Of a stretch of DNA of 12,772 bases, positions 350 to 12,772 are shown one piece after another. Origin of the DNA: a virus (Duplodnaviria > Heunggongvirae > Uroviricota > Caudoviricetes); the IMG/VR virus record IMGVR_UViG_2531839178_000014; one strand, given 5' to 3'. The notes under the pieces are model-generated. The model saw only the letters and a program-made list of their open reading frames with translations, made no database searches and had not been told where the DNA came from. Each line of letters opens with the position of its first letter. The first letter of the stretch is position 1. Both the position numbers and the translations under genes were made by a program.

Positions 350-415
350 CAGTTAATTCCTCCGCTGATATATGAGGTGTACTGGCAATAGCGGACACTA
401 CCATTTGTTCTTTTT

Positions 416-1234
416 TTAAGCAGCCATCTGATGATATTTTTCCCTGAAGGCTGCCGGGGAGATATTCCCCAGACGAGAGTGACGACGCTGACGATTGTAG
501 AAAATCTCAATGTATTCCCGTATTACTGAGATGGCTTCATCCCGGTTATTAAAACGATAGTGGCTCAGGCTCTCATTTTTCAGCGTTCCCCAGAAGCTTT
601 CCATCGGAGCGTTGTCGTAACTGTTACCTTTACGCGACATTGATGTTTTCAGACCAAACTGCTCCTGTATGACCCGGTAATCGTATGCGCAGTACTGTGA
701 ACCTCGATCAGAGTGGTGGATTAGCCCGGCAGGTGGGCGCTGGCTCCTGAGCGCCATAAACAGGGCTTTACCTGTCAGCTCTTTTGTCATGCGCTCTCCC
801 ATGGCGTAGCCGACAATTTCGCACGTATAAACATCTTTGATGCCAGCGAGGTACAACCATCCCTCCTGTGTGGCAACATACGTCAGGTCCGCCACCCAGA
901 CCTGATTTGGTGCTGTAGGAGCGAACGTCTGGTTCAGCAGATTTGGCGCAACTGGCAGATTGTGGTTCGGGTTCGTAGTCGCTCTGAACTTGCGTTTCTG
1001 CTTACAGCGTAGCCTTAGCTCCTTACGAAGACGTGCCAGTCGGTCACGACCAACGATGATGCCATTCTCTGCCAGCTCCGTCTGGAGCCGCCGGGTTCCA
1101 TATGTTTCGCGAGTGCGGATATGTGCCACCTTAATCTCCAGTTTTAGCCGCTCATCACTTTGTTTTCTGTCTGAGGGTTCATGCTGTACCCAGTTGTAAT
1201 AACCGCTCCTGGATACACCAAATACCTGACACAT
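416..1234 (-). CDS. IS3-family transposase OrfB segment (DDE integrase-like catalytic region), IS911-like
   Basis: 272-aa ORF with typical IS3-family OrfB features (ADLTYV..., HSDRGSQY..., YDNAPMESFWGTLK...). The orfB frame upstream of the Met is closed by a TGA at 1283-1285. Confidence 0.85.
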   Translation of the reverse strand: MCQVFGVSRSGYYNWVQHEPSDRKQSDERLKLEIKVAHIRTRETYGTRRLQTELAENGIIVGRDRLARLRKELRLRCKQKRKFRATTNPNHNLPVAPNLLNQTFAPTAPNQVWVADLTYVATQEGWLYLAGIKDVYTCEIVGYAMGERMTKELTGKALFMALRSQRPPAGLIHHSDRGSQYCAYDYRVIQEQFGLKTSMSRKGNSYDNAPMESFWGTLKNESLSHYRFNNRDEAISVIREYIEIFYNRQRRHSRLGNISPAAFREKYHQMAA

Positions 1235-1310
1235 CGCTTCAATGGGAAATTGTTGTCGCCATTGTTCGATTAACGCGTATTTTCAGCGACTCCTGTGCAA
1301 AATACGCTGT

Positions 1311-2531
1311 TGTAGATTCAATCTGTCAATGCAACACCCCTTTCAATTATCTCTTTCGGTGTTTTGAACTTCAGTGTCTTTCTCGGTCTGTTGTTTAGCT
1401 GAGCAGCAACCAGATCTAGTTCATGTTGAGTATATTGGGCAAGACATGTCTTTTTAGGAAAGTACTGCCGAATTAGCCCATTTGTGTTCTCATTTGTTCC
1501 CCGCTGCCAAGGACTCTGAGGATCGCAGAAGTAAACTTTAACGCCGGTGCTGACAGTAAATTCTAGATGTCTGGCCAGTTCCATTCCTCTGTCCCATGTC
1601 AGTGATTTTCTGAGTTCTGACGGTAAACTCAGGAATTTGTCGGTAAGAGCCTGATTTACTGAGACAGAATCTTTGCCCCTGAGTCTAAGGATGATCGTAT
1701 AACGTGATTTTCGGTCTACAAGTGTGGCTATATGAGAGTTTTTTGTACCTGAGACTAAATCGCCCTCCCAATGCCCCAGAGAGCGTCTGTTATCGATATT
1801 TCGGGAACGTTCGTGAATTGGTGTTCCGTTCACTATGTTAATCGTACCTCTTTCGCCTTTGCGGGTATGACGCCTGCCATGGCGAAGGCTATGCGACCGT
1901 CGCAGATGCTGTATATTCAGGTGGTGTAGCGCTTCACGGCTACGAAAGTACAGCGTTTTATAAATTGTCTCAGGTGATATTCGCAGCGTTTTTTGACGTG
2001 GTTTTGTTCGCCTTAACCATCCTGATATTTGCTCTGGAGACCATTTCATCTCCAGCTTTTCCAGAACAAGCTTTCGCAATGGTAAATTTTGATCCAGTAA
2101 GCACGGTTTTGGCCTTTTCGCCATTCTGTTGGCTCGGTTATTAGCATCAACAGCTTTGTAATAGCGTCTGCCCCGATTACGCTGAACTTCACGTGAGATC
2201 GTCGAAGGACTGCGATTCAGCGCAGTAGCTATCGCACGAATGCTCATTTTGGCTGACAAACCAGCTCGTATCTCCTCGCGCTCAGACAGTGTCAGGTGAG
2301 CTACAGCCCGCTTACGCTCATGGGGTTTTATGCCGCCAGTATCCCTTAACATAGTGAAGATCGTTCCGGGTTTTGAACCCAGGATATTCGCTATTTCACT
2401 GAAGCCTGTTCCGTTCTTCCATAGTTCAAAAACAGAGGCTTTTTCCTCTGCTGTAAATGTTCGTCTCATTCAAAAAACCTCCGCGACCCCATGTTTTCAC
2501 ATAACTGTTGCGTTGACCAATTGAATCTACA
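1311..2531 (-). mobile_element. IS30, copy 1 (1221 bp), inserted in the IS911-like element; 2-bp direct repeat GT
   Basis: Terminal inverted repeats TGTAGATTCAAT... at both ends. GT at 1309-1310 and 2532-2533. Encodes a 383-aa transposase. Confidence 0.9.
1318..2469 (-). CDS. insI: IS30 transposase
   Basis: 383-aa ORF, identical to the second copy at 10006-11157. Sequence and length match the IS30 transposase as I recall it; N-terminal HTH and C-terminal DDE region. Confidence 0.9.
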   Translation of the reverse strand: MRRTFTAEEKASVFELWKNGTGFSEIANILGSKPGTIFTMLRDTGGIKPHERKRAVAHLTLSEREEIRAGLSAKMSIRAIATALNRSPSTISREVQRNRGRRYYKAVDANNRANRMAKRPKPCLLDQNLPLRKLVLEKLEMKWSPEQISGWLRRTKPRQKTLRISPETIYKTLYFRSREALHHLNIQHLRRSHSLRHGRRHTRKGERGTINIVNGTPIHERSRNIDNRRSLGHWEGDLVSGTKNSHIATLVDRKSRYTIILRLRGKDSVSVNQALTDKFLSLPSELRKSLTWDRGMELARHLEFTVSTGVKVYFCDPQSPWQRGTNENTNGLIRQYFPKKTCLAQYTQHELDLVAAQLNNRPRKTLKFKTPKEIIERGVALTD

Positions 2532-2794
2532 GTTGCTTTTTTTAATATATCTCGCTCAAGGCGAGCTTCATTTAACGCCTTACGCAGTTGCAGAATTTCA
2601 GATTCCAGTTCAGCCACCGTGCGGGAGCCAGGAGTACCGAGCCCTTTTCTGGCGGCGGTAACCCATTGTCCTAAAGTGCCTTCAGGAAGGGATAATCGGG
2701 AAGCGCCTTCACTGATCGAAAGTTGATTTTCAAGAACCGTTCTGACAGCTTCGGCTTTGAACTCTTTAGAGTAACGTTGGGTTTTTCTGCTCAT
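2532..2794 (-). pseudogene. IS911-like OrfA (MSRKTQRYSKEFKAEAV...DILKKAT), interrupted by IS30 just after the A-run; ORF reads on into the IS30 end (to 2426)
   Basis: ATG at 2794 lies 64 bp inside the IS end. HTH and leucine-zipper-like OrfA. The same segment is present in three copies in the window. Confidence 0.8.
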
Positions 2795-2855
2795 TATTAG
2801 CTCCTTCTGATGCCATTCTATTTCAGGAAGGAGTGTCCGTTAAACTCAGGCTACC

Positions 2856-3197
2856 TCAATATTTTTCTTTCGCGTAATCAATAACCTCTTGTAAAAGGTT
2901 GTCTATAATTAACTTTCCGGTTTCAGCCTGGTATTCAGTATGTTGATTAATCCCGATAGCATTCTGGTATGCAGTGCGGATTTCGGTTTCACCCTCCACT
3001 CGGCCCAATTCACCACGGGTAATACCTTCAAAGCGTAACAGCAACTGGTTTATAAACTGTTCTGTTATTTCTATGGTCGTAATGTTCCCATCCAGAAGGT
3101 CAACAATAAGCAGATCACCACCTGTTTTACGTTTTATTCGATGGAGTGCCGCAACAGCTATACGGCGACGATATGTATTAATGGGTTCATGTGTCAT
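2856..3197 (-). CDS. hypothetical protein, 113 aa as found; last about 6 native codons removed by the IS insertion
   Basis: ORF whose stop codon TGA is supplied by the IS terminus. Rejoining the flanks at the ATA duplication restores ...YAKEKYISGGIN*. In frame with the 37-aa ORF upstream. Confidence 0.6.
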   Translation of the reverse strand: MTHEPINTYRRRIAVAALHRIKRKTGGDLLIVDLLDGNITTIEITEQFINQLLLRFEGITRGELGRVEGETEIRTAYQNAIGINQHTEYQAETGKLIIDNLLQEVIDYAKEKY

Positions 3198-4486: not shown

Positions 4487-5143
4487 TCAGAAAATATCCC
4501 ACCTGGCATCAACCACAACACCTACTATTTCGCAATCATTGTCCATTTCTATGATGGGATATTGTGGATTAAGGGGCTTTAGAAACGCCTTCCCCATTTC
4601 AGAAATATATTTTTTGAATGTTGCTTCATTGGTGGATTTTTTTCTGGCGATGACGTAACACCCTGAAAAAACTTCTTTATCTGGATTGACAAGGATCGAC
4701 ATTCCTTCAGGAAATGTTATTCCTATAGGCGAAGTCATTGAGTCTCCGTGTACTTCCAGCCAGAAGCCCCTCTCACCAGCGTATTTTACAGAATGCCTCC
4801 AATTATCCTGATCATACATGTTGTAGTCATCACCTGCAGTTGCGAATAATCCTGCCTGAACCCAGTTAATTACAGGGTAAGAGTGTGCTGTGTCTCTCTG
4901 GGGACAGCTCTTAACATTATTTTCCCAATACTTACCTTTTTCATCTCCGTTCTGAAGCCACTGCGGTGAACACTGCAGTGCCGCTGCGACTTTAAAAAGC
5001 GTGTCACCGTTGAAACTTTTTGTAAGACCTTGCTCGGCTTTACTGATTGCAACTCTGGTGACCCCAGCTTTTTTAGCCAACGCATCTTGCGTTAACCCAG
5101 CTTTTTGTCGTGCGTTGATGAGGCGTTCACCTAAAGATTTCAT
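4487..5143 (-). CDS. CI-like phage repressor: N-terminal XRE HTH plus C-terminal LexA/S24 peptidase domain (218 aa)
   Basis: HTH LGERLINARQKAGLTQDALAKKAGVTRVAISKAEQG; Ala-Gly site (VQAGLFATAG); GDSM serine motif and a downstream Lys (ARKK). SD AAGGAG precedes ATG 5143. Confidence 0.85.
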   Translation of the reverse strand: MKSLGERLINARQKAGLTQDALAKKAGVTRVAISKAEQGLTKSFNGDTLFKVAAALQCSPQWLQNGDEKGKYWENNVKSCPQRDTAHSYPVINWVQAGLFATAGDDYNMYDQDNWRHSVKYAGERGFWLEVHGDSMTSPIGITFPEGMSILVNPDKEVFSGCYVIARKKSTNEATFKKYISEMGKAFLKPLNPQYPIIEMDNDCEIVGVVVDARWDIF

Positions 5144-5189
5144 TTTTCTTCTCCTTTCATGGCTGCTGATACTAAAGTAACAGAATGTC

Positions 5190-5218
5190 TTGATACTTTG
5201 GATTCTCATGTTTAACAT
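5190..5218 (+). promoter_or_regulatory. candidate rightward promoter (-35 TTGATA, 17 bp, -10 TAACAT) in the repressor/Cro-like intergenic region
   Basis: Hexamers read from sequence; overlaps the second TTGATACTTTGG motif copy. Confidence 0.3.
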
Positions 5219-5254
5219 TCTTGGATAACAGAGTATCCGGTGTGAGGCTAAAGA

Positions 5255-5464
5255 ATGACCCTTTATGAAATATTAAAAACTCAATTTAAAACCAATGCCG
5301 CTATTGGCCGCAGGTTCCCAAAGAAAGGAAAGCCTCGTGGTAGTCAGGGAGTTGGAAAGTGGAAAACGCGGGGCGTTCCGGAGGATGTTGCCATTCTCTG
5401 CCATCTGGATCCGAACATTCCATATACACATCCAAGCTTAGCGCACACAGAGGATGAGAAGTGA
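5255..5464 (+). CDS. small basic protein (69 aa) divergent from the repressor; positional Cro analogue
   Basis: ORF with SD GTGAGG 7 nt upstream. Assigned by position only; no clear HTH recognised. Confidence 0.45.
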   Translation: MTLYEILKTQFKTNAAIGRRFPKKGKPRGSQGVGKWKTRGVPEDVAILCHLDPNIPYTHPSLAHTEDEK

Positions 5465-5504
5465 TGGTGGTGATATGAGCGAAAAAATAACTATTAAATA
5501 CGAT

Positions 5505-5527
5505 GGGGCAACAATTTCGATTGCCCC
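5505..5527. terminator. GC-rich hairpin (GGGGCAA-N9-TTGCCCC) between convergent genes, followed on the minus strand by a T-rich stretch
   Basis: 7-bp perfect stem seen directly. It lies 8 nt beyond the native stop of the 97-aa minus-strand gene once the IS is removed in silico. Confidence 0.35.
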
Positions 5528-5597
5528 AATCACATTAGGCTGTGTCCCTTAATCATCTGAGCTATAGTAACTGTCTGTTTACACAACATATTGAACT

Positions 5598-6047
5598 ATG
5601 GCTCGCTACGACCTTCCCGATGAGGCATGGACCATCATCAAGCCCCTGTTACCTCCTGAACCCGCCACACCACGGGCCGGACGCCCATGGGCTGAGCACC
5701 GTAAAATCATCAATGGCATGTTCTGGGTGTTATGTTCCGGTGCACCATGGCGCGATTTACCCGAACGATATGGGTCATGGAAAACTGTTTATAACCGCTT
5801 TAACCGATGGTCAAAGTCAGGCGTGATTAATATTATTTTCAACAGGTTGCTTTCGCTACTTGATGCAAACGGCTTTATTGACTGGTCTGCCACCGCGCTG
5901 GATGGCAGTAATATCCGGGCGCTGAAATGTGCCGCCGGTGCTCAAAAAAACATCCCGATATCGACGGAGATAATGGGCTGGGTCGCTCTCGCGGCGGTTT
6001 TGGCACCAAAATCCATCTGGCAACAGACGGAAGTGGCCTCCCGTTAA
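5598..6047 (+). CDS. IS5-family transposase ORF1 (N-terminal DNA-binding part)
   Basis: 149-aa ORF MARYDLPDEAWTIIKPLLP...WRDLPERYGSWKTVYNRFNRW. Confidence 0.8.
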   Translation: MARYDLPDEAWTIIKPLLPPEPATPRAGRPWAEHRKIINGMFWVLCSGAPWRDLPERYGSWKTVYNRFNRWSKSGVINIIFNRLLSLLDANGFIDWSATALDGSNIRALKCAAGAQKNIPISTEIMGWVALAAVLAPKSIWQQTEVASR

Positions 6048-6442
6048 ATATCGTGCTAAGCCCCGGACAAGCTCATGAAAGCCAGTTCGCGCAACGACTT
6101 CTGGACGGGATTGGCGTTCAGCGTCAGAACGGCAGCATGAAACGCCGTGGACATGCGGTACTGGCTGATAAAGCGTATTCAGGGCGCGCATTGCGCAACG
6201 AGCTGAAAAATAACGGTATAAAGGCAGTAATCCCCCGAAAGTCAAATGAGAAAATGGCATCGGATGGACGTGCACAGCTTGATCGTGATGCGTACTGCAA
6301 TCGTAATGTCGTTGAACGGTGCTTTGGGCGGCTGAAAGAATATCGCCGCATCGCCACGCGTTACGACAAAACGGCGAGAAATTACCTGGCGATGGTGAAA
6401 CTGGGCTGCATCCGACTCTTTTATCAACGCTTACGTAATTAA
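5927..6442 (+). CDS. IS5-family transposase ORF2 (DDE catalytic part), -1 frame relative to ORF1
   Basis: 171-aa ORF ...GGFGTKIHLATDGSGLPLNIVLSPGQAHESQ...; overlaps ORF1 by about 120 nt. Confidence 0.8.
   Translation: MCRRCSKKHPDIDGDNGLGRSRGGFGTKIHLATDGSGLPLNIVLSPGQAHESQFAQRLLDGIGVQRQNGSMKRRGHAVLADKAYSGRALRNELKNNGIKAVIPRKSNEKMASDGRAQLDRDAYCNRNVVERCFGRLKEYRRIATRYDKTARNYLAMVKLGCIRLFYQRLRN
5944..5950 (+). promoter_or_regulatory. A7 slippery run (A AAA AAC in the ORF1 frame), candidate programmed -1 frameshift site fusing ORF1 and ORF2
   Basis: The frames were checked: ORF1 reads GAQKNIP and ORF2 reads CSKKHPDID over the same A-run. Confidence 0.5.
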
Positions 6443-6452
6443 GGGACACAGC

Positions 6453-6746
6453 CTAGCGTTCGCTGAGAAGTTGTTGGTAAGCCTTAAAGGATGCGAACTG
6501 CATTCTACCTTCGGCATTGATTCCAATGCCTTCGCTTGTGCACCAGGCGATGAACTCGGCTGTATCCGCTTCAGCTTTAATAACTCGTTGCCCGCTTCTT
6601 TCGACACGCTTAATCAATTTTTCAGCGTCGTGTTTCCACTCGGTGTAACTGTCGGAGAGCACATCAGCATCAGTAAAAATATTTTTGAGCTCATGATACT
6701 GAATCGCATCGCGAAACCAGAATAAACCAACGGCCTGAACTTTCAT
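6453..6746 (-). CDS. hypothetical protein, 97 aa, strong SD; native TAA stop overlaps the IS5-family insertion point
   Basis: AAGGAGG sits 6 nt upstream of ATG 6746. Protein-like composition. The plus-strand ORF 6471-6725 is the antisense reading. Confidence 0.65.
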   Translation of the reverse strand: MKVQAVGLFWFRDAIQYHELKNIFTDADVLSDSYTEWKHDAEKLIKRVERSGQRVIKAEADTAEFIAWCTSEGIGINAEGRMQFASFKAYQQLLSER

Positions 6747-6865
6747 GTCGAACCTCCTTTGGTTCTTTTGTTTATAGGGATCAAAAGGATAACTGAAGGA
6801 TGGTTCGGCACCAACAAGTACGAATGTGCGGAATCTTAAAAGAATTTATCCGTAAGGAGATGGCA

Positions 6866-7573
6866 GTGAACACCGCAATTTTTAACGACAAAGTATCCAT
6901 GACCAGCGTTGAAATCGCAGAGCTGGTTGGAAGTCAACACGGCAATGTCAGAATATCAATAGAGCGTCTGGCAAAACGCGGGGTGATTCAACTTCCTGCA
7001 ATGCAAAAAGTTGAGAACGAACAATCATTTAGCCAAAACAAATTCACAAACGCATATATTTTCGAAGGCGAACAAGGCAAACGCGACAGCATCATTGTCG
7101 TCGCACAACTTTGCCCGGAATTCACTGCCCGCCTGGTAGATCGTTGGCGCGAACTGGAAGAGCAGGTGCGCAAACCAATGAGCGAAATCGAAATGGTTGC
7201 CGCGATGGCTCTTGAAGCCGTTCGCCAGCAGAAACGGATCACTCAGGTGGAAGAAAAAGTCAGCCATGTTGCCGAAACAGTTGAGCAAATCAAAAAGGGT
7301 ACCATTCGTGAGGGCTATGCCGGATATCGCCAGCTGAAAGCAAAAACCGGTATGTCAGATGCGAAATGTCGCACGCTTGTAAATGCATACAACATCCCGA
7401 CAGACACTCATGAATTTTTGACGCCAGATGGATTACTGGCACGTCGTGAAATTGTTGCTGTGGAACCGTTTCTGAAGGCGTTTCATCACATGATGTGTGG
7501 TGCCGTTCAGCGTGGTACCCGCTGGTATCACCCGAGAATGGGCCTGTTTCAGGCTACTGGCTGGCAGGTGTGA
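6866..7573 (+). CDS. Rha-like phage regulatory protein (putative antirepressor family)
   Basis: N-terminal ...SMTSVEIAELVGSQHGNVRISIERL... resembles the Rha N-terminus of the second copy. Start chosen at GTG 6866 (AAGGAG 6 nt upstream); the longer track ORF from 6800 has no SD. Confidence 0.65.
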   Translation: MNTAIFNDKVSMTSVEIAELVGSQHGNVRISIERLAKRGVIQLPAMQKVENEQSFSQNKFTNAYIFEGEQGKRDSIIVVAQLCPEFTARLVDRWRELEEQVRKPMSEIEMVAAMALEAVRQQKRITQVEEKVSHVAETVEQIKKGTIREGYAGYRQLKAKTGMSDAKCRTLVNAYNIPTDTHEFLTPDGLLARREIVAVEPFLKAFHHMMCGAVQRGTRWYHPRMGLFQATGWQV

Positions 7574-7592
7574 CGATGTTTACGGGTAATTT

Positions 7593-7769
7593 ATGCAAGT
7601 CCTCAATCGCTGGTTCCGTGATGGCAGAGGGCGCCGCGTCCACGTTATACGCTGGGAGCCTGAAACACAGCGGGTTATTTATCTGCGTGATGGTTATCCA
7701 TATGAATGTTTCAGCCCGTTGTGGTTGTTCAGGCGTGATTTTGTGGAGTGTGAAGCGCCGCCGGAATGA
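7593..7769 (+). CDS. small ORF, 58 aa (MQVLNRWFRDGRGRRVHVIRWEPETQRVIYLRDGYPYECFSPLWLFRRDFVECEAPPE)
   Basis: ATG to TGA open frame in the gap between the Rha gene and the two-gene module; no good SD. Confidence 0.25.
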   Translation: MQVLNRWFRDGRGRRVHVIRWEPETQRVIYLRDGYPYECFSPLWLFRRDFVECEAPPE

Positions 7770-7790
7770 CGGCACGGTATATACGAAAAA

Positions 7791-8150
7791 TTACGCCGCC
7801 TTGCCCAGCGTAAAATCAAAGTGGATGTCGTCATACGGGAATGACGTTCCGCGCTCGCTTTTTTCCAGTAAACCGTTGCTGATGAGTGCGGTCACGTCAG
7901 TATGCACGCTTTTTACATCACGTCCAACCAGGGCTGCAATTTTTCGGATGGGCATTTCTCCGGCACCAGTCATTGCCATCAGAATGTCCATGCGTTTTGG
8001 TGTCAGTACCTTATGCATCATTTGCCAGTCAGGAAATGAAATAACGTTTTCTCTGGTTGCTTTTGCTCCGGTAGCTGCTTCCTGGAACGCAGACAGCACA
8101 TCAGCCGTGAAATTATCCATTGACTCGATTCGGATTGTTACGGTTCTCAT
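7791..8150 (-). CDS. HTH DNA-binding protein (119 aa), antitoxin-like second gene of a coupled pair
   Basis: ATG 8150 lies 1 nt after the upstream gene's stop (TGAcATG). C-terminal HTH-like segment MPIRKIAALVGRDVKSVHTDVTALISNGLLEK. Confidence 0.6.
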   Translation of the reverse strand: MRTVTIRIESMDNFTADVLSAFQEAATGAKATRENVISFPDWQMMHKVLTPKRMDILMAMTGAGEMPIRKIAALVGRDVKSVHTDVTALISNGLLEKSERGTSFPYDDIHFDFTLGKAA

Positions 8151-8151
8151 G

Positions 8152-8439
8152 TCAGATACCTCTGCGGATGGATTCAACGTCAGCCAGAAAATCAGCGAGC
8201 AGTTGTTCAATGGTGACAAAGCTGGTGCTGACTTCCTGACTACCAATGTGTTTGTGATCGCCTTTACCCCGTTCGTTGTCGTAACGCATCACACACATGC
8301 CATCAACGACATAAGCCATGCTGTATTTGTAGTTGTGCTGGCTACCCAATACAGCAGGCTCCACTTCCCATATGCGGATTCGTATGTATTCAGATTCACC
8401 GAGATGACGGATGAACTGTTTATACAGTCTGGATGGCAT
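8152..8439 (-). CDS. small protein (95 aa), toxin-like first gene of a coupled pair; family not recognised
   Basis: SD GAGGAAG sits 6 nt upstream of ATG 8439. Stop is translationally coupled to the next gene. Confidence 0.55.
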   Translation of the reverse strand: MPSRLYKQFIRHLGESEYIRIRIWEVEPAVLGSQHNYKYSMAYVVDGMCVMRYDNERGKGDHKHIGSQEVSTSFVTIEQLLADFLADVESIRRGI

Positions 8440-8457
8440 TTAAAGCTTCCTCTGGTT

Positions 8458-8481
8458 CTTGTTGTAAACAATAACAACAAG
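8458..8481. promoter_or_regulatory. inverted repeat CTTGTTGT-N8-ACAACAAG in the promoter region of the two-gene module (candidate operator)
   Basis: 8-bp perfect arms seen directly, about 20 bp upstream of the start codon at 8439. Confidence 0.4.
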
Positions 8482-8793
8482 GCTTCGCGTTGTCCACAGC
8501 TACAACATTTTGATATTGATTCTGCAAGTCCGGGACGTTACACTGTCTCTGCACCTTATAAAGCGGGTGCCGGGATTGGCGTCCTGAAATTCAATATAGA
8601 GCATAACCGCGCTCATGCGGTTTTTTCGTGTCATGAGCATTGCTACGCCCAAATTATGGTGGGGCGTGCAGGGGCATCGCAAGATGCGCCGGGTTCTATG
8701 TTGACCGGTTACGCCAACCCTGTACGTCTCACCACCTCTGTGATTGGCGTCCCATGTGGTGAGTTCTTTGAATTCAACATAGGGGCTGTCACC

Positions 8794-9357
8794 ATGACTA
8801 CACTCCCAACCCTCTCTCAACCTGAAATTGCCATCGTTGATGGTCAGGCTGTTACTTCATCTCTGGCTGTTGCTGACTTCTTCTCTAAACGTCATGACGA
8901 TGTTCTGAAAAAGATCCGCATTTTGGATTGTTCTCCAGAGTTTTGTGCCCGCAATTTTGCGGAGACATCAATTTTGGTACACCAGCCCAACGGCGGTACT
9001 CGCAAACTTCCTTGCTACCACATCACCCGCGACGGCTTCGCATTCCTGGCAATGGGCTTCACTGGCAAACGTGCTGCCCGCTTCAAAGAGGCATACATCA
9101 ACGCCTTTAACCTGATGGAGAAGAGTTTATCAGGTGCCGATGCGTCTGATATGTCAGCTGTCGCACGAAACGCCAGAGGCGTATACCTGCATTTGCGTGA
9201 AATCCATCAAATCTGGATAAGCCAGCTTTATCCAATGCTTAAGGCCGTTGAGTCTCCGCTGGCTGGCAAACTGTACGACCGTGTAGGTGATGCTGTTTTT
9301 GGTGCTGCACTTGTTGATTCCAGACTGAATGGTTCTGACAAGGAGGGGCGCCCATGA
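8794..9357 (+). CDS. Rha-family phage regulatory protein (187 aa)
   Basis: MTTLPTLSQPEIAIVDGQAVTSSLAVADFFSKRHDDVLKKIR...FKEAYINAFNLMEK matches the Rha family pattern. It is only the 3' part of the 620-aa track ORF. Confidence 0.8.
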   Translation: MTTLPTLSQPEIAIVDGQAVTSSLAVADFFSKRHDDVLKKIRILDCSPEFCARNFAETSILVHQPNGGTRKLPCYHITRDGFAFLAMGFTGKRAARFKEAYINAFNLMEKSLSGADASDMSAVARNARGVYLHLREIHQIWISQLYPMLKAVESPLAGKLYDRVGDAVFGAALVDSRLNGSDKEGRP

Positions 9358-9617: not shown

Positions 9618-9943
9618 TGAGGTAGCCTGAGTTTAACGGACACTCCTTCCTGAAATAGAATGGCATCAGAAGGAGCTAATAATGAGCAGAAAAACCCAAC
9701 GTTACTCTAAAGAGTTCAAAGCCGAAGCTGTCAGAACGGTTCTTGAAAATCAACTTTCGATCAGTGAAGGCGCTTCCCGATTATCCCTTCCTGAAGGCAC
9801 TTTAGGACAATGGGTTACCGCCGCCAGAAAAGGGCTCGGTACTCCTGGCTCCCGCACGGTGGCTGAACTGGAATCTGAAATTCTGCAACTGCGTAAGGCG
9901 TTAAATGAAGCTCGCCTTGAGCGAGATATATTAAAAAAGCAAC
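9618..9943 (+). mobile_element. IS911-like 5' segment (IRL plus OrfA up to the A-run), 326 bp, abutting the IS30 IRL
   Basis: Near-identical to the reverse complement of 2532-2858 except that the A-run is A6 rather than A7. OrfA (9682-9948) therefore reads ...DILKKQL* into IS30. Confidence 0.85.
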
Positions 9944-11164
9944 TGTAGATTCAATTGGTCAACGCAACAGTTATGTGAAAACATGGGGTCGCGGAGGTTT
10001 TTTGAATGAGACGAACATTTACAGCAGAGGAAAAAGCCTCTGTTTTTGAACTATGGAAGAACGGAACAGGCTTCAGTGAAATAGCGAATATCCTGGGTTC
10101 AAAACCCGGAACGATCTTCACTATGTTAAGGGATACTGGCGGCATAAAACCCCATGAGCGTAAGCGGGCTGTAGCTCACCTGACACTGTCTGAGCGCGAG
10201 GAGATACGAGCTGGTTTGTCAGCCAAAATGAGCATTCGTGCGATAGCTACTGCGCTGAATCGCAGTCCTTCGACGATCTCACGTGAAGTTCAGCGTAATC
10301 GGGGCAGACGCTATTACAAAGCTGTTGATGCTAATAACCGAGCCAACAGAATGGCGAAAAGGCCAAAACCGTGCTTACTGGATCAAAATTTACCATTGCG
10401 AAAGCTTGTTCTGGAAAAGCTGGAGATGAAATGGTCTCCAGAGCAAATATCAGGATGGTTAAGGCGAACAAAACCACGTCAAAAAACGCTGCGAATATCA
10501 CCTGAGACAATTTATAAAACGCTGTACTTTCGTAGCCGTGAAGCGCTACACCACCTGAATATACAGCATCTGCGACGGTCGCATAGCCTTCGCCATGGCA
10601 GGCGTCATACCCGCAAAGGCGAAAGAGGTACGATTAACATAGTGAACGGAACACCAATTCACGAACGTTCCCGAAATATCGATAACAGACGCTCTCTGGG
10701 GCATTGGGAGGGCGATTTAGTCTCAGGTACAAAAAACTCTCATATAGCCACACTTGTAGACCGAAAATCACGTTATACGATCATCCTTAGACTCAGGGGC
10801 AAAGATTCTGTCTCAGTAAATCAGGCTCTTACCGACAAATTCCTGAGTTTACCGTCAGAACTCAGAAAATCACTGACATGGGACAGAGGAATGGAACTGG
10901 CCAGACATCTAGAATTTACTGTCAGCACCGGCGTTAAAGTTTACTTCTGCGATCCTCAGAGTCCTTGGCAGCGGGGAACAAATGAGAACACAAATGGGCT
11001 AATTCGGCAGTACTTTCCTAAAAAGACATGTCTTGCCCAATATACTCAACATGAACTAGATCTGGTTGCTGCTCAGCTAAACAACAGACCGAGAAAGACA
11101 CTGAAGTTCAAAACACCGAAAGAGATAATTGAAAGGGGTGTTGCATTGACAGATTGAATCTACA
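9944..11164 (+). mobile_element. IS30, copy 2 (1221 bp)
   Basis: Same terminal repeats as copy 1. Flanked by AC on the left and GT on the right, which are reverse complements rather than a direct repeat. Confidence 0.9.
10006..11157 (+). CDS. insI: IS30 transposase
   Basis: 383-aa ORF identical in protein sequence to 1318-2469. Confidence 0.9.
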   Translation: MRRTFTAEEKASVFELWKNGTGFSEIANILGSKPGTIFTMLRDTGGIKPHERKRAVAHLTLSEREEIRAGLSAKMSIRAIATALNRSPSTISREVQRNRGRRYYKAVDANNRANRMAKRPKPCLLDQNLPLRKLVLEKLEMKWSPEQISGWLRRTKPRQKTLRISPETIYKTLYFRSREALHHLNIQHLRRSHSLRHGRRHTRKGERGTINIVNGTPIHERSRNIDNRRSLGHWEGDLVSGTKNSHIATLVDRKSRYTIILRLRGKDSVSVNQALTDKFLSLPSELRKSLTWDRGMELARHLEFTVSTGVKVYFCDPQSPWQRGTNENTNGLIRQYFPKKTCLAQYTQHELDLVAAQLNNRPRKTLKFKTPKEIIERGVALTD

Positions 11165-11491
11165 GTTGCTTTTTTTAATATATCTCGCTCAAGGCGAGCT
11201 TCATTTAACGCCTTACGCAGTTGCAGAATTTCAGATTCCAGTTCAGCCACCGTGCGGGAACCAGGAGTACCGAGCCCTTTTCTGGCGGCGGTAACCCATT
11301 GTCCTAAAGTGCCTTCAGGAAGGGATAATCGGGAAGCGCCTTCACTGATCGAAAGTTGATTTTCAAGAACCGTTCTGACAGCTTCGGCTTTGAACTCTTT
11401 AGAGTAACGTTGGGTTTTTCTGCTCATTATTAGCTCCTTCTGATGCCATTCTATTTCAGGAAGGAGTGTCCGTTAAACTCAGGCTACCTCA
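11165..11491 (-). mobile_element. IS911-like 5' segment (IRL plus OrfA up to the A-run), 327 bp, inverted, abutting the IS30 IRR
   Basis: Matches 2532-2858 (A7) with one substitution (A at 11260 versus G at 2627). OrfA from ATG 11427 reads into the IS30 end (track ORF 11077-11427). Confidence 0.85.
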
Positions 11492-11627
11492 AAGGACCGA
11501 ACAAACGAAACAGCAATGAGACCGTTGCGAAAAGCGACAATAGACAAATTCCCTGAATATATCGACCCGCGCCTGCGTAATTACCGCTCACGCTATGGCG
11601 CTATCAGTAATGACTGAGGAATTTACC

Positions 11628-12338: not shown

Positions 12339-12529
12339 TAGACTGGCCCCCTGAATCTCCAGACAACCAGTATCACTTAAATAAGTGATAGTCTTAATAC
12401 TAGTTTTTAGACTAGTCATTGGAGTACAGATGATTGATGTCTTAGGGCCGGAGAAACGCAGACGGCGTACCACACAGGAAAAGATCGCAATTGTTCAGCA
12501 GAGCTTTGAACCGGGGATGACGGTCTCCC
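12339..12529 (+). mobile_element. insC: IS2 left end with the first 33 codons of InsC ([33 protein letters not shown]), interrupted by another IS
   Basis: IRL TAGACTGGCCCCCTGAATCTCC at 12339; InsC ATG at 12430. Identity to IS2 is lost at about 12530. Confidence 0.85.
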
Positions 12530-12772
12530 TGAACCGCCCCGGGTTTCCTGGAGAGTGTTTTATCTGTGAACTCAGGCTGCCAGATCATCGTTTCCGATGG
12601 AAGCATAATAAGCTTTTTCTGCTTCTGCCGGAGGAGTATGGCCCAGCCTTTCCAGCAATCGTCGATTGTTATACCAGTCCACCCACGTGAGTGTGGCCAG
12701 TTCCACTTCTGCACGGTTTTTCCAGCTCTTACGGTGTATTACCTCCGCTTTGTAAAGACCATTGATGCTCTC
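12530..12772 (-). mobile_element. IS3-family element (IS629/IS1203-like) right end with the OrfB C-terminus; continues beyond the window
   Basis: Terminus TGAACCGCCCCGGG. Minus-strand frame 12572-12772 encodes ...[66 protein letters not shown]. Confidence 0.7.

Follow-up and report, generated by a model that had tools for sequence, protein, structure and literature searches.

An IS5-family insertion sequence at the stop codon of a 97-residue phage gene

The window analysed here, 12,772 nucleotides of Caudoviricetes DNA, contains an apparently intact 916-bp insertion sequence of the IS5 family (positions 5538–6453), a known enterobacterial element labelled ISSfl1 or ISSfl7. It lies between the open reading frame (ORF) of a small phage gene encoding 97 amino acids (the 97-aa gene), exactly at the stop codon, and a conserved RNA hairpin (Table 1). 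We hold with high confidence the account as a whole, namely that a known IS5-family element with a frameshifted transposase transposed into a prophage immunity region, with the consequences for the locus described below. The element itself is already known and this is one more insertion site of an ordinary Shigella and Escherichia coli insertion sequence; the finding matters little beyond annotation. For annotation, the element is best treated as a single frameshifted transposase gene and not as two ORFs, and the 97-aa gene is intact but separated from its conserved 3′ hairpin. The more interesting by-product is the combination of that hairpin with an antisense-nested plus-strand ORF, both of which are properties of the prophage and not of the insertion sequence.

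Table 1. Features of the insertion locus, in window coordinates.
Feature	Position	Strand	Remarks
CI/LexA-type repressor gene	4487..5143	-	HTH_3 and Peptidase_S24 domains
Cro-like gene, phrog_4749	5255..5464	+	69 aa; first gene of the rightward early operon that receives the element
Truncated plus-strand ORF	5475..5552	+	MSEKITIKYDGATISIAPITLGCVP, then stop; 25 codons; 10 nt after the stop of the cro-like gene; Shine–Dalgarno-like GGTGGTGAT
Conserved RNA hairpin GGGGCAA-N9-TTGCCCC	5505..5527	-	Ancestrally began 7 nt past the 97-aa stop; now 918 bp further away
Left copy of the TA target duplication	5536..5537		Inside target TTAG, which fits YTAR
Insertion sequence	5538..6453	+ (transposase strand)	916 bp; boundaries shared by 17 genomic contexts
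Left terminal inverted repeat	5538..5553	+	GGCTGTGTCCCTTAAT; the TAA within it (5550-5552) is the stop of the truncated plus-strand ORF
orfA	5598..6047	+	149 aa without frameshift; DUF4096 N-terminal domain and first catalytic Asp, D102
Slippery heptamer A AAA AAC, orfA frame	5945..5951	+	In the A7 run 5944-5950; proposed -1 frameshift site
orfB frame, -1 relative to orfA	5951..6442	+	From shift point to stop; D191, E240, Y233-R236-E240-K247
Right terminal inverted repeat	6438..6453	+	ATTAAGGGACACAGCC; includes the transposase TAA stop (6440-6442)
97-aa phage gene, phrog_4753	6453..6746	-	Strong Shine–Dalgarno AAAGGAGGT; stop TAG, ancestrally TAA
Right copy of the TA target duplication	6454..6455		Source of T and A in the TAG that now ends the 97-aa gene

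A preliminary description, made from the sequence alone, had proposed an IS5-family element, and database searches bear this out. The DNA of the element is 99.5–99.9% identical to named ISSfl1 and ISSfl7 copies in Shigella and E. coli. The choice between the two names rests on GenBank and NCBI labels: the GenBank record of plasmid pCP301 reads ‘ISSfl1 ORF1/ORF2’, and the NCBI label is ‘IS5-like element ISSfl7 family transposase, programmed frameshift’, the words ‘programmed frameshift’ also standing in the NCBI annotation of identical copies. Copies that cover query positions 1–916 exactly occur in 46 E. coli records and in 154 plasmid records, mostly from Shigella, and because these independent copies align exactly over that length we set the limits of the element accordingly. 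Its terminal inverted repeats are perfect, with 16 of 16 positions complementary; by our own estimate, roughly 1e-4 such 16-nt repeats without mismatch would arise by chance in a stretch of some 1.2 kb. With a repeat finder the arms reach 27 nt at 85%, the flanking TA included. ISSfl7 has been reported in fimD of Shigella boydii (PMC4374849).

The transposase is divided between two overlapping frames, and a −1 fusion of the two, with the shift at residue 118, is 281 aa long. This fusion matches the NCBIfam model NF033580 (‘IS5 family transposase’) with 318 bits against a cutoff of 110, over model positions 2–257 of 258, and in Pfam it matches DUF4096 (103.7 bits) and DDE_Tnp_1 (77.2 bits), the latter over residues 99–271, a stretch that spans the shift. 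Catalytic residues, assigned by inspection of motifs and not from structure, are the DDE triad D102, D191 and E240, with the signature Y233-R236-E240-K247 (Y-x2-R-x3-E-x6-K) in DAYCNRNVVERCFGRLK. orfA supplies an N-terminus of the DNA-binding type and, upstream of the shift, D102; D191 and E240 lie downstream of it in the −1 frame. A polymorphism at 6296 changes residue 234, outside the signature positions: the present copy, the pCP301 copy and several others encode Cys (TGC), and 14 of 21 copies encode Arg (CGC).

At the proposed junction, the heptamer A AAA AAC starts at codon position 3 of orfA and has the X XXY YYZ form in the 0 frame. The two-ORF, −1 arrangement had been recognized from the start; the coordinates given for the heptamer at that time, 5944–5950, are those of the A7 run, and the heptamer itself occupies 5945–5951. 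The A7 run is kept in 20 of 21 copies of the element. In-frame A-rich heptamers occupy the same position in more distant elements, as A AAA AAC in a Citrobacter relative (63% identical), A AAA AAA in ISLpl3 and A AAA AAG in a Rhizobium relative. The two-frame arrangement recurs in relatives from other phyla, most of which need two tblastn pieces, and because high-GC relatives keep the two frames with the A-run absent, the exact joining mechanism may vary within the group. The only close copy found with an uninterrupted transposase frame, on a Shigella sonnei plasmid (L059), has A8 in place of A7, and its frames are fused exactly at the proposed shift site. Around the heptamer we detected a weak GGTG only, 5 nt upstream, and no stable structure downstream, where the predicted fold of the 121 nt from position 5940 is no more stable than that of shuffled controls (z = −0.63). 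A literature search returned nothing specific on frameshifting in ISSfl1 or ISSfl7 and no experiment on the present element; according to PMC3281130, IS1 and IS3 were the only families for which transframe products had been demonstrated. We propose that the full transposase would be made only after a backward slip of the ribosome by one base on A AAA AAC, and a low efficiency of this step would keep transposition rare. The present copy may be active at this time.

The position of the element agrees with its target preference. TA is found on both sides at 17 of 17 distinct insertion sites, with Y before it in 16 of the 17 and R after it in all of them. Because the element prefers such YTAR/TA targets, landing on a stop codon is expected and needs no special explanation; the same rule explains why elements of this kind often lie on or beside TAA and TAG stop codons. 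We reconstructed the empty site as the window minus the element and one TA. In BLAST searches, this reconstruction aligned as one ungapped piece (802 of 802 nt, 99.6% identity) with prophages in seven E. coli chromosomes, and at 95–98% identity with many further sequences; the junction reads ...CCCCAATCACATTAGCGTTCGC..., which matches the prediction, with a single TA there. Nearly all relatives, which range from E. coli to Serratia, Pectobacterium and Phytobacter, have a TAA stop followed by the hairpin; two lineages stop with TAG or TGA. Such uninterrupted sites confirm directly that the insertion lies at the stop codon, between ORF and hairpin, as first claimed. The excision originally put forward, removal of 5538–6455 and of the duplicated TA, was right in that TAA is restored, and needs rewording since 5538–6455 already includes the second TA.

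We considered whether the arrangement with the element could be ancestral and the empty sites products of precise excision, which would likewise leave a single TA. This is otherwise only a logical possibility, and we regard it as extremely improbable. Every other lineage examined is uninterrupted, including those of other genera with protein identities as low as 74–82%; the same insertion was found in none of the complete E. coli genomes and in just one other contig (L013/L080); and the element is near-identical to copies elsewhere, as expected of a recent arrival. A scan of species-representative genomes returned a single relative, from Phytobacter. A second alternative concerns the joining of the transposase frames, which could come about by transcriptional slippage, with RNA polymerase adding an extra A in the A7 run. 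Slippage of this kind on long A or T runs reportedly occurs in some insertion sequences, and it would suit a junction made up of seven consecutive A, the A8 variant of the DNA with its exactly fused frame, and the lack of a detected stimulatory RNA structure downstream. Efficient transcriptional slippage, however, usually requires runs of about nine or more, and A7 is shorter than that. The canonical heptamer, moreover, stands in the 0 frame in this element, as it does in relatives that have A6C or A7G, and ribosomal slippage requires just this placement. In IS1, the A AAA AAC motif serves ribosomal frameshifting (Sekine and Ohtsubo 1989, as cited in PMC3281130). We therefore judge slippage of the polymerase to be unlikely, and slippage of the ribosome on the heptamer the probable route to the transposase.

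The protein encoded by the 97-aa gene is unchanged by the insertion. Its stop codon (6453–6455, minus strand) has gone from TAA to TAG, as had been noted from the sequence, and the uninterrupted relatives end in TAA; the G of the new TAG comes from the element, whose final base, C6453, is complementary to it. Substitutions among relatives are distributed over codon positions 1, 2 and 3 as 129:52:397, a bias that identifies the minus strand as the selected coding frame. Full-length relatives are 97 aa long, except for one 95-aa form, alongside a few truncated entries. We rejected the reading of this gene as a mere shadow of the plus-strand ORF on the grounds of the same bias, of a protein that is 78–82% conserved against 46–54% for the antisense frame, and of its full-length PHROG family. 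An AlphaFold2 model of the protein is reasonable (pLDDT 87); compared with PDB folds it gave no significant match (best 2ox6, E = 0.5), and the protein had no match in Pfam or NCBIfam.

Directly 3′ of the ancestral 97-aa gene, on the gene’s own strand, lies a G+C-rich stem-loop with a stem of 8–9 bp and a folding energy of −17.4 to −21 kcal/mol (z about −2.8 to −3.1). Across 13 lineages, 116 of 117 cells are paired in the minus-strand RNA, and two pairs have compensatory double changes; in the first 10 lineages, 83% of the helix is paired on the plus strand against 98.9% on the minus strand. Most one-sided changes in the stem are transitions, and a transition in a Watson–Crick pair gives G·U on one strand only. 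Hairpin and stop are always 7 nt apart where the product has 97 aa; in the Serratia form of 95 aa (L082), 13 nt separate them. The preliminary description had placed the hairpin 8 nt after the stop and its displacement at about 0.9 kb; the arrangement holds, with the figures refined to 7 nt and 918 bp. Orientation and spacing fit a 3′-end element of the 97-aa gene. An Rfam scan of positions 5100–7000 returned nothing relevant.

The same hairpin had been called terminator-like. The hairpin is conserved, with covariation, and its role as a terminator is putative. Its tail, TCGTATTTAA, passes the threshold of the terminator scan (5 T in 8) but is interrupted, and the tails of relatives are often not T-rich (ATCAACTGTT in L040, for example); the scan flags the hairpin, yet matches in the region are no more numerous than in shuffled sequence. 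Because the T-tract is weak and not conserved, loss of a terminator through the insertion is uncertain. The hairpin may, then, not be the terminator of the 97-aa gene at all, being instead a stabilizer of the 3′ end or a palindrome kept for some other reason inside the plus-strand ORF, in which case the insertion would matter mainly through the plus strand, by ORF truncation and polarity on the early-right operon. The tail and the shuffled expectation speak for this, and so does the position of the hairpin within codons 11–18 of an ORF that has a conserved start codon and Shine–Dalgarno sequence and third-position-biased substitutions (38:15:55). The stem, however, is preserved at the expense of the protein sequence of the plus-strand ORF, which in L084 changes from A to E and from A to S; one-sided changes all remain paired only in minus-strand RNA, and the spacing from the stop is fixed in the 97-aa lineages, with the Serratia form as the exception. 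On this evidence, we find a reading without a terminator possible but doubtful.

An effect on the plus strand had been missed in the preliminary description: the ORF starting at 5475 retains just 25 codons, and 916 bp are placed inside the cro-side early operon. At empty sites this ORF runs for 110–147 codons, antisense to the 97-aa gene, which in the nine lineages examined lies wholly inside it except in the E. coli group. The ORF occupies the ‘cII position’, has a strong Shine–Dalgarno sequence of its own and starts 1–30 nt after the cro-like gene; in exact codon-antisense register with the 97-aa gene, it meets no stop over the whole of that gene or almost the whole. Its TGA overlaps the start codon of the next early gene in eight lineages outside E. 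coli (ATGA, GTGA or ATGAATGA). Its openness is not significant when judged by stop avoidance alone, since with only 4–6 Leu and 2–6 Ser codons the chance of meeting no antisense stop is 0.09–0.30 per lineage; it is the conserved start codon, the Shine–Dalgarno sequence and the stop/start overlaps that speak for translation. Homology searches with the ORF brought up nothing but these loci with the opposite strand called, with no free-standing family, and it had no PHROG or Pfam match. Because the body of the ORF is not conserved as protein, we suggest, tentatively, that it might be a ‘bridge’ translated for the sake of translation itself, which could tie cro to the early genes further along and protect the transcript against Rho across the antisense gene; the insertion would then truncate it and uncouple the early operon. 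The two-strand coding arrangement at the ancestral locus is unusual and may be undescribed.

The CI/LexA-type repressor gene identifies the region as a prophage immunity region, and relatives have Cro/YdaS-type genes at the cro-like position. We propose that the IS5-family element transposed into the immunity region of a decaying lambdoid prophage, where its DDE transposase would have recognized a YTAR site and duplicated the central TA, and that the TA used happened to belong to the TAA stop of the minus-strand 97-aa gene. Because the hairpin has been displaced 918 bp downstream, transcripts of the 97-aa gene should continue into the element, in antisense orientation to its transposase gene. 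The early-right operon is split by 916 bp of foreign DNA, with effects that are likely to be polar; both read-through and polarity are expectations from the arrangement of the locus. The host was probably a strain of the Shigella or enteroinvasive E. coli type. IS expansion in Shigella is well described (PMC7373316), and the present insertion is consistent with it. The prophage remnant also carries IS3-family, IS30-family and IS2-type sequences.

The nearest known counterpart is ISSfl1 of the Shigella flexneri 2a 301 plasmid pCP301 (AF386526), which has the same 916-bp length, inverted repeats, two ORFs and A7 junction. The present element differs from the pCP301 copy at 5 nt and from E. coli chromosomal copies at 1–2 nt, and, apart from the polymorphism at codon 234, the insertion site is the sole difference we can name. 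Its organization appears to be of the IS427 type, a subgroup placement that rests on organization and not on ISfinder classification. Elements of the IS427 group, such as IS1248, ISPpa2 and ISPaes1 of Paracoccus, are likewise small, with short terminal inverted repeats and a duplication of mostly 2 bp; their two ORFs overlap and have a frameshift motif, and the DDE set is complete in the fusion only (PMC3281130). With 916 bp and a 2-bp duplication, the present element is within the range taken for the group (about 0.8–1 kb, 2–4 bp); it is somewhat longer than the Paracoccus examples (830–865 bp), and its transposase shares about 30–45% protein identity with distant members of the group. The slippery motif of IS1 is A AAA AAC. 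In IS1, as here, this motif joins a small upstream ORF to a catalytic one (insA-insB′), presumably with the same logic, in which low-efficiency frameshifting limits the amount of transposase. Frameshifting has been demonstrated for IS1 (Sekine and Ohtsubo 1989, as cited in PMC3281130), unlike for the present element. IS1 nevertheless belongs to an unrelated family, with another transposase, other ends and a target duplication of 8–9 bp. IS5 proper, the target preference of which is of the YTAR type, shares with the present element a DDE transposase with the Y-x2-R-x3-E-x6-K signature and TA-containing targets; it is about 1.2 kb long, with a single long transposase ORF and a 4-bp duplication, whereas the present element has two frames and duplicates 2 bp.

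The locus of insertion is the immunity region of the prophage, and the element, placed in the IS5 family by the preliminary description, is an already known insertion sequence. The fused transposase matches NCBIfam NF033580 at positions 2–257 of 258 (318 bits). The element spans 916 bp (5538–6453). Records matching exactly its positions 1–916 number 46 for E. coli and 154 for plasmids, with up to 99.9% identity, and 130 of the 176 plasmid records with any match to the element are from Shigella. The pCP301 record names the genes of its copy ‘ISSfl1 ORF1’ and ‘ISSfl1 ORF2’; in chromosomal copies NCBI annotates a single joined CDS as ‘IS5-like element ISSfl7 family transposase’ or ‘IS5 family transposase’, noted as ‘programmed frameshift’. 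ISSfl7 has also been described as interrupting fimD of S. boydii (PMC4374849). The window copy differs from the pCP301 and NCBI-annotated chromosomal copies at 1–5 positions, and contains no premature stops; its two inverted repeats are intact, as is the A7 run, and its exactly repeated ends are the top inverted pair of the repeat finder (27-nt arms, 85% complementarity with TA included). Because the element is known and its behaviour here is typical, it is of low interest. Codon 234 (window 6296) is polymorphic, being CGC (Arg) in 14 of 21 copies, as in a 63%-identical Citrobacter relative, whereas the window copy has TGC (Cys), a codon shared with pCP301 and five others; each allele is present at several different insertion sites.

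Coordinates of features in the window
Feature	Position	Strand	Remarks
IS3-family element interrupted by IS30-family element	370–2860		orfB 416–1234, orfA 2426–2794; IS30-family transposase 1318–2469
CI/LexA-type repressor gene	4487–5143	-	Prophage immunity region
cro-like gene	5255–5464	+	Prophage immunity region
Rha/antirepressor-type genes			Right of the cro-like gene
Hairpin	5505–5527	-	3' of the 97-aa gene; covariation across genera (alignment A6)
Target duplication TA	5536–5537 (left), 6454–6455 (right)		Directly outside the element ends
Left terminal inverted repeat, GGCTGTGTCCCTTAAT	5538–5553		Exact reverse complement at 6438–6453; direct reading of 5100–6700
orfA	5598–6047	+	149 aa
Second transposase ORF	5927–6442	+	171 aa from first ATG; -1 frame relative to orfA
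A7 run	5944–5950	+	orfA and second ORF overlap across the run
Heptamer A AAA AAC	5945–5951	+	Starts at codon position 3 of orfA

Across 21 copies at 17 distinct sites, drawn from E. coli, Shigella plasmids and IMG/VR contigs, TA stands on both sides of the element at every site, preceded by a pyrimidine at 16 and followed by a purine at all 17. Insertion is thus into YTAR, with TA duplicated, and this preference predicts a stop-codon target because TAA and TAG both contain TA. The stretch 5538–6455 was deleted in silico and the joined 802-nt flank used as the query; it aligned as a single ungapped piece to seven E. coli chromosomes (99.3–99.6% identity), with many further matches at 95–98%. 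The junction at the E. coli empty sites, ...TTGCCCCAATCACATTAGCGTTCGCTGAG..., is the same as the reconstruction and bears out the earlier proposal that this deletion restores the TAA of the minus-strand 97-aa gene, which is included in the NCBI annotation there. The uninterrupted layout also occurs in relatives further removed, including IMG/VR contigs, metagenomes, Phytobacter, Pectobacterium and Serratia (74–93% protein identity). The element is at this site in no complete E. coli genome and in one IMG/VR contig (UViG_2874920711_000002), which shares 99.85% identity with the window across 3.3 kb. With empty sites widespread and a single other occupied contig, the comparison indicates that the insertion is derived and recent.

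At the 97-aa gene, the insertion turned the stop from TAA to TAG (6453–6455, minus strand), C6453 being the terminal base of the element, and left the protein unaltered; it also shifted the hairpin 918 bp away. The changed stop and a shift of about 0.9 kb agree with the preliminary description. The ancestral minus strand read ...GAA CGC TAA TGTGATT GGGGCAATC-loop-GGTTGCCCC..., and the lower stem takes in the AA of the stop codon. The window allele folds at -17.7 kcal/mol and the majority allele at -21 kcal/mol (z near -3). Scored as minus-strand RNA in 13 distinct lineages, the 9-bp helix has 116 of 117 cells paired, the single exception being the loop-closing C.U of the window lineage, which is the only stem-weakening change. 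At two pairs both partners have changed in compensation (C-G to A-U, A-U to G-C); at four others a single side varies, and each such change is to or from G.U. As plus-strand RNA the helix reaches 83% pairing, compared with 98.9% on the minus strand (first 10 lineages), and each one-sided change breaks a pair. This minus-strand pairing and covariation across lineages indicate that the hairpin is real, conserved and specific to the strand that carries the 97-aa gene. As a terminator it is no more than putative: a terminator scan picks it out, but hits of this kind are just as numerous as expected from shuffled sequence, and the T-tract that follows is interrupted and unconserved in relatives. 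The data would fit a role in stabilising the 3' end just as well. Inside the element, antisense to the transposase, is a terminator-like stem with a TTTTGG tail (6031–6012, minus strand; a consensus match only), the nearest such match on that strand within the element, some 420 nt beyond the relocated stop. Read-through transcripts from the 97-aa gene could end at this putative site.

At empty sites, a plus-strand ORF overlaps the 97-aa gene over its whole length or nearly so, in exact codon-antisense register; in the window this ORF begins with ATG at 5475, ten nt after the cro-like stop and preceded by GGTGGTGAT. Substitutions in the overlap fall 129:52:397 over the codon positions of the minus frame, and protein identity is 78–82% for that frame versus 46–54% for the plus frame. 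Both measures place selection in the overlap clearly on the minus frame, which makes the 97-aa gene the true protein-coding gene of that stretch. Its product is assigned to phrog_4753 and has a confident AlphaFold model, for which no significant fold match was found. In two IMG/VR relatives (L031 and L038) a premature TAG at codon 36–37 implies that the gene is dispensable, or decaying, in some prophages.

The preliminary description, essentially right in observation and interpretation, did not see the consequence on the plus strand, namely truncation of the plus ORF and insertion into the early-right unit. In the window this ORF (5475–5552) is shortened by the element to 25 codons, reading MSEKITIKYDGATISIAPITL-GCVP*. 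At empty sites (L003–L005, L010, L040, L041, L043, L044, L055, L057 and L081–L084) the E. coli group has a 110-codon ORF, and other lineages with a mapped start have one of 145–147 codons. The ORF occupies the ‘cII position’, its body is unconserved as protein, and the openness of the antisense frame is insignificant when taken alone. Every lineage checked for the start has a start codon and a strong, differently spelled Shine–Dalgarno; the N-terminal segment differs by 15 nt, a multiple of three, between lineage groups and has substitutions of 38:15:55 on codon positions 1:2:3; and in eight non-E. coli lineages the TGA overlaps the start codon of the next early gene, with two different downstream genes. 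Together these suggest, as a lead rather than a conclusion, that the ORF is translated; its unconserved body suggests translation as a ‘bridge’. The insertion places 916 bp in the early-right transcription unit, the transposase gene being co-oriented with that unit, and a polar effect on downstream early genes would be a reasonable inference.

Other mobile elements surround the locus. The block 1311–2858 recurs inverted at 9618–11164 (99.9% identical; second composite region 9618–11492), so that two copies of the IS30-in-IS3 composite, oppositely oriented and separated by about 6.8 kb, flank the region holding the element. These, the start of an IS2-type orfA and the Shigella-centred distribution of the element suggest that the host is of Shigella type or an enteroinvasive E. 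coli, with a prophage that is riddled with IS and probably defective, which fits the well-known picture of IS expansion in Shigella (PMC7373316). Near the window ends are a perfect 76-bp inverted repeat (257–332 and 12339–12414) and an IS2-type TnpA N-terminus (at about 12427, in 12427–12690), in which 34 residues match PRK09413 before disruption. Two small overlapping minus-strand genes lie among plus-strand early genes at 7791–8439; they correspond to two genes annotated ‘transcriptional regulator’ and ‘TumE family toxin-antitoxin protein’ in the E. coli CFSAN029787 prophage (L003 7238–7886). Over this pair runs a 620-codon plus-strand ORF (7495–9357), the first two thirds of which look spurious and the end Rha-like.

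The -1 arrangement over an A-rich heptamer, as originally proposed, recurs in relatives. When orfA and the -1 frame are joined at A AAA AAC, a 281-aa protein results, with DUF4096 at residues 6–80 and DDE_Tnp_1 at 99–271 (Pfam). A shift at residue 118 puts D102 in orfA and leaves D191, E240 and the Y233-R236-E240-K247 signature to the -1 frame; catalytic completeness can, on this prediction, be reached only in the fusion protein. Most plasmid relatives, from Streptomyces to Lactobacillus and Rhizobium, split into two tblastn pieces, and among six relatives inspected every intact one has orfB in the -1 frame. An in-frame heptamer stands at the same place in the Citrobacter element (A AAA AAC), ISLpl3 (A AAA AAA) and a Rhizobium element (A AAA AAG), and the A-run is absent in two high-GC relatives. 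No stimulatory structure was found downstream of the heptamer (folding z = -0.63), and transcriptional slippage on A7 is a minority alternative to programmed frameshifting as the source of the fused frame. Of 21 close copies, 20 retain A7. Just one close copy carries a single long ORF (281 codons); it is on S. sonnei plasmid CP104417.1 (L059, 128853–129995; 99.3% identical), where A8 replaces A7 and fuses the frames exactly at the proposed shift point. This variant may be a genuine mutant whose frames are constitutively fused, or may stem from a sequencing error in the homopolymer. For the IS427 group of the IS5 family, the transframe product was undemonstrated when the group was described with a 2-bp duplication, two overlapping ORFs, a frameshift motif and a complete DDE in the fusion only, and the organisation of the element matches that published description (PMC3281130).
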